A stretch of 64,000 bases of DNA from Escherichia phage 92CQ. The position numbers were made by a program, and so were the translations under genes. Each line of letters begins with the position of its first letter. Within the stretch, counting starts at the first letter, position 1. Under the pieces are notes generated by a model. That model saw nothing but the letters and a program-made list of their open reading frames with translations. It was not told where the DNA came from and did not search any database. This document shows positions 51,107 through 59,148 of the stretch, one piece after another. Location of the stretch: sequence record PV682554.1. The stretch is one strand, 5' to 3'.

Positions 51107-51442
51107 ATGTGTGTTCCTCTTAGCAGTCCACTGCTGTTAGAATTTTACAAAGCATGGATGGAAGATCATTCCTCAATGCATCGTGAGAATGTTGGTTTGT
51201 GTAATTGCCTTATGGATTACCTGGCAACCACTATGTCAAAGAAAAAACCTACGGAAGAAGATATAGAATATTTCAAGATGGTTCGTAGCAAAACGCTGGA
51301 AGAGATGAAACTGCAATTCACGTGTGCTGGGCTATCCTCCTTCCTACCCTTTAATTATGATCTTCTGTGTTATGAAGATGAAGGTAAGACACATTCTTGC
51401 CATACCAACCCAAAGAGATTGCAGTGGGTGAAAGACCTATAA
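51107..51442 (+). CDS. hypothetical protein, paralog family A (LxFYxxW...GLCxCLxDY)
   Basis: Start set at MCVPLSS with RBS aaggag; track start was 51050; paralogs at 53574 and 54548. Confidence 0.55.
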   Translation: MCVPLSSPLLLEFYKAWMEDHSSMHRENVGLCNCLMDYLATTMSKKKPTEEDIEYFKMVRSKTLEEMKLQFTCAGLSSFLPFNYDLLCYEDEGKTHSCHTNPKRLQWVKDL

Positions 51443-51646
51443 AGCATGGATTGCCAACTATCCTGCAATGAATCGCACAACGAGTGGCTTATGTGGTTGT
51501 CTAGATTATGTAGATGATTTTGTTGGTGAGACAACTAGAGAAGAAGATAGAAGATGGCGGGATAGTTTGTTGGACCGTTTGAAATATGAAATTCTTCATG
51601 GGTGAAAGACAGAATTGAAGATGCAAATAATGCTTGCATTGAATAG
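51432..51646 (+). pseudogene. truncated, frameshifted duplicate of paralog family A
   Basis: Encodes YKAWIANYPAMNRTTSGLCGCLDYVDDF... (parallels YKAWMEDHSSMHRENVGLCNCLMDY upstream), lacks the family N-terminus; family C-terminus WVKDRIED continues in the +1 frame after HG-stop. Confidence 0.5.
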
Positions 51647-51716
51647 AAATGTCTGTACACTGTGTTCCATAAGATATGCAATATCGCGCATAACAAACTA
51701 CTAATGAGAGGTGTAA

Positions 51717-52175
51717 ATGAAAACTGTATCTTTGTATCTTGCTAACACGGAGCGTGTACATAATCTTGTAAAAGAATGCGGTGTGAGTGTTCAATTTAAC
51801 ATAGGAAAGCCTTCCGTGGTGACAGGCAGTGAGATGTGTGTTATTGATTTCCTCAATGAATATTTTCGTGGAAAACCTATTGCTCGTCACTTCATTCAAG
51901 AAATGCGAGATGTACTACAGGCTTATGAATTCTACCCAGAAGTTTGTGAACGCTATGAAACGATTCTTAGTGCTGTAGAAGATCCAGATACTAGTGAAAC
52001 AGGTGCTTCCCACTTGCTGTGGATGTTGAATGAAATTCAGGATGGGTGTAATGGTATGTCTGAAACCAAACGCCATCGTTGGCTAGGCTATATTCAGGGT
52101 GTTATGGTTATGAAAAACCTTATTACAGTGAATGATGAACGTAACGCTACACGCCCAGTCTTTAATGGAGCATAA
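51717..52175 (+). CDS. hypothetical protein
   Basis: 152 aa ORF with RBS gagaggtg. Confidence 0.6.
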   Translation: MKTVSLYLANTERVHNLVKECGVSVQFNIGKPSVVTGSEMCVIDFLNEYFRGKPIARHFIQEMRDVLQAYEFYPEVCERYETILSAVEDPDTSETGASHLLWMLNEIQDGCNGMSETKRHRWLGYIQGVMVMKNLITVNDERNATRPVFNGA

Positions 52176-52176
52176 C

Positions 52177-52392
52177 ATGAAAAGCATTAGGGTGTGTATC
52201 GAGAATAATTGTGGCTATCTGGGGTTGACACACGTTGCTTTCCCTCTTATATTGGATGCCGATATAGCTTACAGCGGAGTTGCTTATGTGTCATTCAAGA
52301 CAATGAGCCAAGTACCTGGCTGGAATTGGGAAGTAGTTGATGTTGTTGAAGGAGAAGACTATGTTTTCCTTCCACACGAATATACTGTTTAA
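52177..52392 (+). CDS. hypothetical protein
   Basis: Start set at MKSIRV with RBS aatggag; track start was 52132. Confidence 0.5.
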   Translation: MKSIRVCIENNCGYLGLTHVAFPLILDADIAYSGVAYVSFKTMSQVPGWNWEVVDVVEGEDYVFLPHEYTV

Positions 52393-52407
52393 AGAGAGGA
52401 AAAGAAG

Positions 52408-52590
52408 ATGGATAAACAAACTACTGTGTACTTAGTAACAAAGAATACCCCAGGCTGGAGCCAATGCAGCACTGTTCCTTACAAGATCTGTGCAACATTA
52501 GAACTAGCACAACGTGCAGAAGCAGAAGTGGATGCCATGCAAATGCAACACAGCTATGGTGAGATCATTCCTTTTACTCTTGAACAATAA
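52408..52590 (+). CDS. hypothetical protein
   Basis: 60 aa ORF with RBS agagagg. Confidence 0.5.
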   Translation: MDKQTTVYLVTKNTPGWSQCSTVPYKICATLELAQRAEAEVDAMQMQHSYGEIIPFTLEQ

Positions 52591-52601
52591 GGAGTTGTGT
52601 A

Positions 52602-53054
52602 ATGTTTGAAATTGGTAAAGTGTATCGTTTTAAGAACGCATCTTATATCCGTAAGTTTGCTAATGTGTCTGAGTGCAATAGCAGGATTGCTTCTTTCTTA
52701 GGTGATTCCTATTTTCGTGTATTAGATGTGGATGACTGGTATGGTGTCACTGCTTTGCAATCCTTAGCAGGAGAACAAGAAATTATCGCTCAAAATGAAG
52801 GAGACTTTCTTCAGTGTTACACGTTGCTTGCAAAAAGTGAATTTGAATACTTTGTAGAAGTATTAGAAGAAGCACCAAAAAGTAAACATGAAGAGAAATA
52901 CTTGCTTGTAGTGGATGGAGTTCCAATTGTGGAAACCATCTCCCGTGAGGAAGTTGAAAAAGAGGCAAAACGTTACAAGCTGGATCGTACACAGAGTGTA
53001 GTTGAAGTCTATTCTCTTGTTGGTGTTGCAGATATTAATGTGACCATTGTATAA
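52602..53054 (+). CDS. hypothetical protein
   Basis: 150 aa ORF with RBS aaggag. Confidence 0.6.
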   Translation: MFEIGKVYRFKNASYIRKFANVSECNSRIASFLGDSYFRVLDVDDWYGVTALQSLAGEQEIIAQNEGDFLQCYTLLAKSEFEYFVEVLEEAPKSKHEEKYLLVVDGVPIVETISREEVEKEAKRYKLDRTQSVVEVYSLVGVADINVTIV

Positions 53055-57528: not shown

Positions 57529-57776
57529 ATATCAAAGATGTTGTAGCATATGTAGAAGATGAAGTTAAAAACCATACAAGTTTACTGAAAGTAATGGTTG
57601 TGGTTAAAAATGGCATTGGACAAGTAAACGTACAACATGTCTTATCTGATACTGTATATAATGTGTTTGAATGTAAAGACACACCTCATGGAGTACGTGT
57701 GGTGTATATTGATAACAATTTCAAAGAGTGTGTGAGACATACCTTAGAAAATGAGCTAAGGATCACAATCTTATGA
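57525..57776 (+). CDS. hypothetical protein
   Basis: 83 aa ORF; start overlaps upstream stop. Confidence 0.5.
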   Translation: MNIKDVVAYVEDEVKNHTSLLKVMVVVKNGIGQVNVQHVLSDTVYNVFECKDTPHGVRVVYIDNNFKECVRHTLENELRITIL

Positions 57777-57946
57777 GTTATTATGTTGTACCCTATGCCA
57801 ATAAGTGGAGAGTAAGAGAAACTTGTTTTCTATTCTCCTGGTGGGCTACGTTCGGAGATGGTTGTGGAAATGATACAGGGAAGCCTGTAGAGTATGACAC
57901 AAAAGAAGAATGTGAACAGTGGATAAAATTAACACAAAGATGTTGA
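57773..57946 (+). CDS. small Cys-containing protein (57 aa), not in ORF track
   Basis: ATGA overlap with upstream stop; MSYYVVPYANKWRVRETCFLFSWWATFGDGCGNDTGKPVEYDTKEECEQW... Confidence 0.4.
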   Translation: MSYYVVPYANKWRVRETCFLFSWWATFGDGCGNDTGKPVEYDTKEECEQWIKLTQRC

Positions 57947-57971
57947 CACGATCTTAACTTCTTGTTAGTAT
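57943..57971 (+). promoter_or_regulatory. sigma70-like promoter (TTGACA, 17 nt, TAGTAT) overlapping stop codon of upstream ORF
   Basis: Precedes RBS aaggaggg and ATG 58000. Confidence 0.5.
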
Positions 57972-57999
57972 CAATATGTACTAACGATAAGGAGGGTTT

Positions 58000-58224
58000 A
58001 TGAAGTCTGTAAACAAGTTGCAACAATTTTTGTTATCAACAGCAATCTTTTTGCTTTTGTTAATTGGTATTCTGTATGGTGCATCTAACTTATACAATCT
58101 ACACAACAATGTAGAACATAATATAGAGAAGTGCACCATCCTAAAACACAATAAACAAGCAGAAGATTTCTTAAAGAATAAGTGTTACAATTACATTGAT
58201 TATGAGGAGACAAACAATGATTAA
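58000..58224 (+). CDS. small membrane protein, paralog family B
   Basis: N-terminal TM helix AIFLLLLIGILYGA; C-terminal EKCTILKHNKQAEDFLKNKCYNYIDY parallels the 53917 paralog. Confidence 0.6.
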   Translation: MKSVNKLQQFLLSTAIFLLLLIGILYGASNLYNLHNNVEHNIEKCTILKHNKQAEDFLKNKCYNYIDYEETNND

Positions 58225-58459
58225 ACAATTAGGGATGCGAGTATACAGTGAGTGGACTCCAAGCAATGGCCCAGGAGTTGTTGCAGCTAAATGTATCAAT
58301 GGTCGTATTGAGTACCTGGAAGGTTATGAAGATAATGAAGAGTTAGTAGATTATGCTAAATCTTTTATTGAAGATGATACAGACTTTATTGTATTGTATG
58401 ATACAGGAGAGTTAGAGTATGGATATGATGGAGATGGGGATATCTTTGAACTTCAATAA
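58217..58459 (+). CDS. hypothetical acidic protein
   Basis: Start set at MIKQLGMRVY with RBS gaggag; track start was 58196. Confidence 0.5.
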   Translation: MIKQLGMRVYSEWTPSNGPGVVAAKCINGRIEYLEGYEDNEELVDYAKSFIEDDTDFIVLYDTGELEYGYDGDGDIFELQ

Positions 58460-58666
58460 GAGTAGTAAGTAAGATATAAAGAGTATATAGTTAGTTATAG
58501 AGTTAGTAACATTACATATACTCTTTCCATGTATAACATGGAATATTCTCTACCTCGCTATCGCTCGGTATATAAGATTAGGGTAGCATGTTTTTTACGA
58601 AAAGTAAAACTGTTTGTACCGATTGATAGCAGGTTTTTAATAGATTTTATCTATGAGGAGTAGAAA

Positions 58667-58885
58667 GTGTACAAATTATATAAAGCAAAAGATAAGTTTA
58701 CGGGTAATACATCTGGTTTCTATGTAACACCACGAGGTGTTGCTGTATTTGATTGGATCTCTGGTACTCCAGATCGTGAAATGATCTCTCTTGTAAAACT
58801 GTCAGAACAAGAGTACACTTACGGTGACATTACAACATTCTATTCTCGTGCAGAGAATCCAAAACTGATTGCGGAGTGGGAATAA
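58667..58885 (+). CDS. hypothetical protein (GTG start)
   Basis: 72 aa ORF with RBS gaggag before GTG. Confidence 0.5.
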   Translation: MYKLYKAKDKFTGNTSGFYVTPRGVAVFDWISGTPDREMISLVKLSEQEYTYGDITTFYSRAENPKLIAEWE

Positions 58886-59148
58886 TGGTTACACGATATG
58901 GTTTAGAGGTGTACAGCCAAGGTGCTGCTGGTCAATGTGATATTGTACCAGATCCAGAGGGGGATTATGTTCTTCTTGCTGATTACAATAAGCTAGAAGA
59001 AAGACTTCTGGCTGTGTATGCTAAAGAGAACAAAACAATCTGTCCTTATTGCAGTGGAATGGGTTGGGTGGTTGCAGATGTTGGACAAATGTATGAATGT
59101 GTACCTTGTAAAACCACAGGATTTATTGAAAAGGATACTGACAAATGA
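58876..59148 (+). CDS. hypothetical protein, paralog family C with extra C-terminal CxxC pairs
   Basis: QCDIVPDPEGDYVLLADYNKL parallels 54145 paralog; additional CPYCSG...CVPC zinc-ribbon-like motif. Confidence 0.55.
   Translation: MGIMVTRYGLEVYSQGAAGQCDIVPDPEGDYVLLADYNKLEERLLAVYAKENKTICPYCSGMGWVVADVGQMYECVPCKTTGFIEKDTDK

Follow-up and report, generated by a model that had tools for sequence, protein, structure and literature searches.

The stretch of DNA analysed in this work, called the window here, comprises 64,000 nucleotides of Escherichia phage 92CQ (PV682554.1), and our subject is a block of small genes at 51.1-59.4 kb in which three families of paralogues, A, B and C, recur (Table 1). 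The window comes from an Escherichia myophage of the genus Justusliebigvirus (phi92-like, Stephanstirmvirinae): its 51.0-59.2 kb segment matches more than 50 genomes of that genus, including EC_OE_11, Eryne, outra and alia, at 96-98% identity over the full length. In phi92 the orthologues of this segment are gp001 to gp026, straight after the annotated left direct terminal repeat (DTR, positions 1-343 of NC_023693), and phi92 positions 1-565 align with window positions 50458-51020 at 97% identity. Since the phi92 repeat maps just 5' of them, the genes in question belong to the first ~8 kb of coding sequence past the physical left end, the block itself beginning ~300 bp past the repeat. They are co-directional, with gaps of -10 to +16 nt and canonical AAGGAGG ribosome-binding sites, and strong terminator-like hairpins flank the block at 49353-49371 and 62151-62170. 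Direct orthologues, 93-100% identical in protein sequence, occur in phi92 and more than 100 related records, and phi92 has the same genes, in the same order and in the same position adjoining the repeat, all annotated as hypothetical or of unknown function. The A, B and C genes are small, non-structural and situated in a variable accessory block adjoining the genome end.

Table 1. Features of the locus, in window coordinates (HMM, hidden Markov model; E, expectation value; ORF, open reading frame; SD, Shine-Dalgarno sequence; dN/dS, ratio of nonsynonymous to synonymous substitution rates)
Feature	Position	Strand	Properties
Region homologous to the phi92 left DTR (DTR 1-343)	50458..50800 (end ~50800)	.	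marks the physical genome end just 5' of the cluster
A1, family A, 111 aa	51107..51442	+	family A HMM E 7e-29; dN/dS 0.25; SD aaggag
A1' remnant, fourth, decayed family A copy	51437..51605	+	45-aa ORF 51468-51605, 'GLCGCLDY'; blastn against Eryne (L001)
A2, family A, phi92 gp006 orthologue, 116 aa (GTG start)	53574..53924	+	family A HMM E 7e-35; dN/dS 0.04
B1, family B, phi92 gp007, 72 aa	53917..54135	+	Kyte-Doolittle 19-residue maximum 2.55 at residue 7; dN/dS 0.34
C1, family C, phi92 gp008, 74 aa	54145..54369	+	beta-hairpin (CDIVEDPNG..V), then long helix; PHROG 23083; dN/dS 0.04
Small hydrophobic membrane protein, phi92 gp009, 55 aa	54371..54538	+	directly 5' of A3; not a family member; Kyte-Doolittle maximum 2.78; dN/dS 0.05
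A3, family A, phi92 gp010, 194 aa	54548..55132	+	family A HMM E 1e-28 (residues 9-116); PHROG 27059 E 3e-139; dN/dS 0.11
B2, family B, phi92 gp022, 74 aa	58000..58224	+	Kyte-Doolittle maximum 2.41; dN/dS 0.29
C2, family C, phi92 gp025, 87 aa	58885..59148	+	PHROG 22955; PHROG 13972 for residues 49-85; dN/dS 0.07

An earlier note, made from the letters of the window, had named seven of these genes as members of three families, and all seven were found where it had placed them, on the + strand and each with a Shine-Dalgarno sequence. That every family has more than one copy is agreed upon by BLASTP, all-against-all comparison, PHROG cross-matches, jackhmmer and a shuffle test in which the Smith-Waterman score of each pair was set against those of 2000 shuffles of the partner sequence. 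By BLASTP, A1 and A2 share 39% identity over 111 aa (E 7e-24; shuffle z 31.7), A2 and A3 30% over 114 aa (E 3e-11; z 15.5), A1 and A3 38% over 40 aa (E 3e-6; z 8.1), B1 and B2 44% over 27 aa (E 1e-8; z 13.8), and C1 and C2 41% over 32 aa (E 7e-7; z 9.7). When the 784 six-frame ORFs of the window were compared all against all, these pairs were among the few significant matches. The profiles of the copies also cross-match reciprocally: B1 matches phrog_23204 (E 6e-7) and B2 phrog_15662 (E 4e-6), C1 matches phrog_22955 (E 4e-4) and C2 phrog_23083 (E 5e-4), and phrog_2510 is matched by A1 (E 1e-20), A2 (E 2e-25) and A3 (E 4e-17), whilst jackhmmer connects the copies within each family. The PHROGs matched altogether are 2510, 27059 and 6418 for A, 15662 and 23204 for B, and 23083, 22955 and 23941 for C. 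The reading that there are no true families, and that the similarities come from chance or composition, could appeal to the span of only ~30 residues in B1/B2 and C1/C2, and to database-scale tblastn, which misses both similarities and finds one place per record. However, none of the 2000 shuffles equalled the observed score in any of the five pairs, so the similarity is not compositional, as the earlier note had allowed that it might be, and the invariant cysteines and motif columns are common to several genera. With the profile matches, this already refutes the chance reading, to which we attach practically no likelihood.

The same note took the families for a diversifying duplication, with a B-then-C block repeated 'with insertions', and here less of it stands. 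The order does repeat, with C1 directly after B1 and C2 after B2 at a distance of three genes (random-arrangement probability ~0.017, for a pattern chosen post hoc), but blastn with a word size of 7 gave nothing at E <= 0.01 when 51.0-59.4 kb was compared with itself. The paralogues being without DNA similarity, the 'duplicated block' is a matter of gene order alone. Nor are the three ORFs between B2 and C2 recent insertions, since they were found in all eight related genomes examined. Comparison of copy numbers across relatives gave a divided answer: family A varies between two and eight copies, whereas B and C are fixed at two in each of eight Justusliebigvirus genomes. According to jackhmmer, the Phapecoctavirus ESCO13 already carries a pair of B genes together with each type of C gene, so the two lineages of B and the two of C are older than the split between Justusliebigvirus and Phapecoctavirus, and the identity between paralogues is now about 25-45%. 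Selection was estimated gene-wide by pooled Nei-Gojobori dN/dS over eight Justusliebigvirus genomes. The ratios of the family members (Table 1) run from 0.04 to 0.34, which means that every copy is kept by purifying selection; those of the whole cluster range from ~0 to 0.34, with family B fastest and still far from neutrality. The three families are old duplications maintained by purifying selection, and 'diversifying' is not supported for ancient copies with such ratios and no DNA similarity between them.

The recurring order suggests, as the simplest history, that an ancestral A-B-(x)-C segment was duplicated once, long ago, and that divergence and local loss followed; paralogue identities are too low to prove such a single event. 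Those within family A (22-51%) do not settle which copies pair, and an attempt to pair the A copies that precede B genes was uninformative (28-37% identity). As a candidate third C gene, which would have put a C directly next to B2, the gene at 58217-58459 was rejected: its shuffle p values were 0.02 and 0.12, and jackhmmer did not recruit it. A 73-aa metagenome protein (P0206) joins the first ~32 residues of C1 to the C-terminal half of the product of this same gene (54145-54240 joined to 58330-58459), a chimera that implies, for some relative, the loss of ~4 kb from between the two B-C regions, with the junction at a short match (YED(Y/N)E). The 44-aa ORF at 58529-58663, flanked by the gene that follows B2 and the gene that precedes C2, is probably not protein-coding, since among the eight phages it shows 39 nonsynonymous and 0 synonymous differences and it overlaps a hairpin at 58525-58543.

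Gains and losses of copies concern family A, where the earlier note overlooked a fourth copy, the remnant A1'. A1 is 100% identical to its Eryne counterpart up to 51436, where a 221-bp deletion starts, and consequently its C-terminus is truncated, ending ...WVKDL* instead of the ...WVKDRIADSCKGV of Eryne. This deletion and another of 111 bp, both relative to Eryne, took the end of A1, a gene for a 51-aa membrane protein and most of A1', whose remnant is 86% identical to a 122-aa Eryne protein (shuffle z against A1, 5.8). The 122-aa gene is intact in Eryne, alia, A150 and ESCO8, with the 51-aa membrane-protein gene 5' of it, and both A1 and A1' are missing from phi92 and KKP_3264. By an HMM of the family built from 108 diverse members, phi92 and KKP_3264 have two copies, EC.P2 and the window three (the window having the remnant besides), and Eryne, alia, A150 and ESCO8 four, whilst the Phapecoctavirus phages ESCO13 and dw-ec have seven and eight, and a metagenomic contig (L015) packs seven A domains into 2.5 kb. 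To judge from these genomes, gene gain and loss is limited to the A1/A1' pair by the genome end. Smaller changes mark the rest of the locus. Compared with Eryne and phi92, A2 has lost 18 nt at its 5' end (window 53565-53590), which shifts its start to GTG; like the decayed A1' and the truncated A1, this deletion sets the window apart from its phi92-type relatives. The window also lacks phi92 gp011, a 228-aa gene after A3 that Eryne has too (window 55132-55200), and an extra 82-aa gene found in Eryne between B1 and C1 (window 54135-54145), and among relatives B1 has two alternative C-terminal endings. The locus as compared here is a mosaic in which indels are frequent.

Family A is an all-helical domain of ~105 aa, modelled by AlphaFold2 for A2 as six helices with a predicted local distance difference test score (pLDDT) of 93.7. 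The A2 fold has no analogues in the PDB, and no DNA-binding fold was recovered. In A3 the domain occupies residues ~5-116 and is followed by an unrelated extension of ~78 aa. A profile built from the three window copies and searched against 1.84 billion representative proteins gave 720 representative clusters (formed at 50% identity) at E <= 1e-3, 142 of them at E <= 1e-10, from proteobacterial phages; the exhaustive profile search was needed, as a word-index homologue search with A2 returned its own orthologue only. Most members are single-domain proteins of 100-120 aa, some (e.g., in Citrobacter phage Tr1 and Burkholderia phage BcepSaruman) have two or three domains in tandem, and others, in enterobacterial prophage-like contexts, carry long unrelated N-terminal extensions. 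No member matched Pfam, NCBIfam or PADLOC, all source names are 'hypothetical', and a scan of 20 longer members for fused domains found no Pfam domain. One match to Nlig-Ia among the 108 members (E 0.001) was dismissed as expected by chance and without structural support.

Conservation within the domain is concentrated in near-invariant columns that include hydrophobic core positions and, in A2 numbering, the polar Ser7, Cys33, Glu62, Gln66, Asn79, Glu88, His95, Asn97 and Arg100, a polar pattern that suggests a functional site. The signature L..FY, GLC, E...QF..AGL, PFN and (C)H.N..R..WV is found in A1 and A2; A3 retains FY, C, PFN and CHLN..R..WV, with no GL before the cysteine, and the remnant retains GLCGCL only. 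The family is scattered over unrelated phage lineages, always amid small accessory genes: in the N4-like Erwinia phage Kuerle an A gene is found 1.9 kb inside the left end, adjoining the gene of an early RNA polymerase subunit, in the autographivirid Rhizobium phage RHph_TM38 three A domains lie at 0.36-1.5 kb, and in Salmonella phage Akira the A gene stands inside a block of small ORFs.

Family B is confined to Stephanstirmvirinae-like phages, in which all of its 49 homologues were found. Its N-terminal hydrophobic helix is variable and its C-terminal module, KE(Q)C(IV)LKH..A.KFL...C.RYV.Y, is conserved, with two invariant cysteines 17 residues apart; over 51 sequences KE.C...K....A..FL...C is at least 90% conserved. 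B1 has a transmembrane helix followed by KEQCIVLKH..AEKFL...C.RYV.Y, and B2 a transmembrane helix or signal peptide followed by the same two-cysteine module. The charge distribution is compatible with an N-in/C-out topology, in which case the cysteine pair would be periplasmic, and for gp022, the orthologue of B2, the phi92 record carries a SignalP note that predicts a cleavable signal peptide. An envelope location, as superinfection-exclusion proteins often have, agrees with the one strong hydrophobic helix of each protein. B1 orthologues split into many clusters at 90% identity. A sigma-70-like promoter match lies 5' of B2, at 57943-57971.

All 29 homologues of family C come from close relatives; the Phapecoctavirus version is one part of a protein of 148 aa. 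The AlphaFold2 model of C1 (pLDDT 74) has strands at residues 19-21 and 27-29 and helices at 30-50 and 59-67, and a fold search with it gave no match below E 0.9. The motif CxCDIVxDPxG, by which the earlier note had defined the family, is exact in C1; C2 reads GQCDIVPDPEG and does not share the first cysteine, and multiple alignment gives CDIVxDPxG..V...DY..L as the true shared signature, extending to Y....T.CP. The second gene of this family is itself present, with the ATG at 58885 a likelier start than the GTG at 58876 that had been proposed. In C2 the hairpin and helix are fused to a putative zinc-finger module, CPYCSGMG...CVPCKTTG, which is an add-on rather than part of the shared domain, because C1 lacks it. 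The two CxxCxGxG units, CPYCSGMG and CVPCKTTG, resemble those of DnaJ-type zinc fingers and anti-TRAP, and phi92 gp025 is annotated as 'DnaJ-like zinc finger'; the matches of C2 to PF00684 (DnaJ_CXXCXGXG; E 0.033, 14.9 bits against a gathering cut-off of 32.7), PF15777 and NF058604 are all weak and far below curated cut-offs. The only functional label that the family touches is that of Lar-like restriction alleviation. C1, likewise a small cysteine-containing phage protein, matches phrog_3592 (Lar-like) weakly over residues 2-48 (E 9e-4, compared with 1e-56 for its own PHROG), but it has no evident four-cysteine ribbon of the kind typical of Lar and no fold match, and neither C1 nor C2 matched PF14354 (Lar_restr_allev) at E <= 1.

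The family A genes are repeatedly found next to genes of tiny membrane proteins, an association as striking as the recurrence of B then C. In the window the stop of A2 overlaps the start of B1 by 8 nt. In ESCO13 both B genes lie directly 3' of an A gene and overlap it (random-order probability ~0.008), and the run of seven tandem A domains in the contig mentioned above is followed by a B gene. Other membrane-protein genes behave similarly: that of gp009 stands directly 5' of A3, the 51-aa gene of Eryne precedes A1' and overlaps its start, and in phage Akira the A gene shares an overlap with that of a 35-aa transmembrane protein. In one family A cluster (P0005) a homologue of the 51-aa protein (43% identity, E 6e-10) is fused to the A domain as an N-terminal membrane segment. 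Such repeated pairing, overlap and fusion points to A proteins working at the inner membrane with partners of this kind; it supports a functional link, without proving it.

It is from the position of the block at the genome end that we infer an early accessory role in interaction with the host. With a probability of roughly 0.55, the genes at 51.1-59.4 kb would encode early accessory proteins directed at the host rather than parts of the virion. On this reading A, B and C proteins would be expressed early and would act on the host. Family A may be a soluble effector of ~105 aa and six helices, whose near-invariant polar residues most likely form one binding or catalytic site; its paralogues may be versions of diverged specificity aimed at a host or defence component, and they might partly work at the inner membrane with small membrane partners. 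Family B could be one such partner, a mini-protein anchored N-in/C-out or secreted, whose 30-residue two-cysteine module probably faces the periplasm and may act on the envelope, either in an exclusion-like manner or by blocking an envelope function. Family C would be a small beta-hairpin-helix adaptor with varying C-terminal modules, the zinc finger in C2 being one.

Several observations weigh against such a host-directed role. No homology ties any member of the three families to a function (none in Pfam, NCBIfam or PADLOC, and only 'unknown function' in the PHROGs). A simple scan for sigma-70 sites gave 63, against 57.8 expected from shuffles, which is no enrichment, and the strong purifying selection on A2 and C1 (0.04 in both) would also fit a conserved phage-internal role. 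A-then-B is not universal, as a non-A gene precedes B in two contigs (L016 and L017). The grounds for placing the B module in the periplasm are its charge distribution and the SignalP note in the phi92 record, and the C1 model is only moderately confident, with the first 20 residues poorly predicted.

The earlier note saw in these families a typical gene set for host range, superinfection exclusion or anti-defence. The accessory position, the variation in A copy number and the membrane anchoring of B agree with such a set, whilst a host-range role in the sense of receptor binding is unlikely for non-structural proteins of 70-190 aa. On the other side stands the lack of any match to a known family: against defence-related or annotated families in Pfam, NCBIfam and PADLOC nothing was found for A, B or C, no dedicated anti-defence HMM library being scanned. 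For these genera a single anti-defence protein has been reported, Atd1, which is a MazG-like pyrophosphatase (PMC11724313; bioRxiv 10.1101/2022.06.09.495361). Atd1 can be discarded as the identity of any member, as A, B and C have no MazG or other Pfam match. Our literature search found no paper on the families, and no record or paper that notes their paralogy.

A stronger version of the same idea would have the duplication recent or ongoing, with anti-defence or exclusion genes diversified by positive selection that tracks host defences. The A copy number, from two to four among close relatives to seven or eight in Phapecoctavirus, would fit such an arms race, and so would the deletions at the A1/A1' locus, the mosaic of extra genes in Eryne and phi92, and family B, which has the highest dN/dS in the cluster and, for B1, many 90%-identity clusters. 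Yet gene-wide dN/dS is far below 1 in every member, the copies have no similarity left at the DNA level, B and C are stable at two copies in lineages common to another genus, and no member matches a known anti-defence protein in the searches described above, which makes it an unlikely account. It is also conceivable that the families work within the phage's own programme, for instance by regulating transcription or replication or by acting as chaperones, and that the paralogues are subfunctionalised housekeeping genes. The very strong purifying selection on A2, C1 and C2 (0.04-0.07) would then be expected, as would conservation across genera; several neighbouring genes are labelled 'predicted transcription regulator' in the phi92 record, and C2 has its putative zinc finger. 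Against this, A1 and A1' are dispensable, since phi92 and KKP_3264 lack them and in the window they have decayed, family A is patchy in unrelated phages and always amid small accessory genes, it yielded no DNA-binding fold, and B is a membrane protein. We consider it doubtful that the families are of this internal kind.

Within the preferred reading of host-directed accessory genes, a more specific proposal can be made, if only tentatively and as less probable than its alternatives taken together: family A, with its near-invariant Cys/His/Glu/Asn/Arg constellation, may be an undescribed phage effector domain, amplified in tandem in the DNA that is injected first, which together with membrane partners such as B would counter host defences or commandeer a function of the host membrane. 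The family A protein might also be a small enzyme.

Small early membrane or periplasmic proteins that exclude superinfecting phages are familiar from T4 (Imm and Sp) and T5 (Llp). Family B may be analogous, as its members are likewise small, located among early accessory genes and envelope-anchored or secreted, with one transmembrane helix or signal peptide and a cysteine pair suited to the periplasm; what sets it apart is that neither sequence nor profile comparison links it to any of the three, and that it is confined to the Stephanstirmvirinae-like phages. Multigene families and tandem arrays are also known from large viruses, in the gene 'accordions' of poxviruses and the paralogue families of giant viruses. 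By analogy, family A too consists of tandem diverged copies by a genome end, with a copy number that varies among relatives, but its copies are ancient and highly diverged instead of recently amplified.

Other elements of the window were observed along the way. Palindromic motifs of the form AATGATAATCATT(A/C)TCA cluster at 39063-39177, 49585-49659, 50530-50550 and 50726-50747 and closely resemble the E. coli Fur-box consensus GATAATGATAATCATTATC, with 15 matches at <=3 mismatches where 0.5 are expected. The site at 50531-50549 agrees with 17 of the 19 consensus positions; it falls in the part of the window that is homologous to the terminal repeat of phi92, and it is conserved both there (phi92 74-92 and 269-287) and in Eryne. 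At a distance of 360-570 nt 5' of the cluster's first gene, the motif may tie early transcription to the Fur/iron status of the host, or may be the operator of a phage protein. In the neighbouring gene block, eight copies of GTAAnnTGTAtCACATAGGGCGG(C/G)AA...CCGCC, ~30-70 nt each (40095, 40451, 41944, 43064, 43382, 46620, 47262 and 48040), stand just 5' of ATG starts and resemble a -10-like box with a GC-rich hairpin after it; they are probably phage promoter and 5' stem-loop units. A guess that tRNA genes lie at 38-48 kb was ruled out, as ARAGORN found none in the window and the repeats there are promoter- or hairpin-like. On the - strand, 21963-22925 and 22919-23968 are adjacent paralogous genes (40% identity over 332 aa, E 1e-79), and one of the two products gave a weak match to a glycosyltransferase-like Pfam family. 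Among the search matches were five UNVERIFIED records (MG0656xx) under the name of Campylobacter jejuni phages; they are ~96% identical to the E. coli phage region and are probably mislabelled or contaminating coliphages.

Paralogous accessory families in the early region are ordinary for large phage genomes, and should no phenotype be found for those described here, they would be a case of ordinary gene-family turnover in such regions. What the present results add to annotation is that three sets of 'hypothetical proteins', found in more than 100 phi92-like and phAPEC8-like phages that are candidates for therapy, are paralogues. The part most worth following up is family A, a large, well-folded, phage-specific domain that merits definition as a family. 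Its position at the first-injected end in several unrelated lineages, together with its pairing with membrane proteins, or fusion to them, makes its members candidates for screens of early host takeover and counter-defence.

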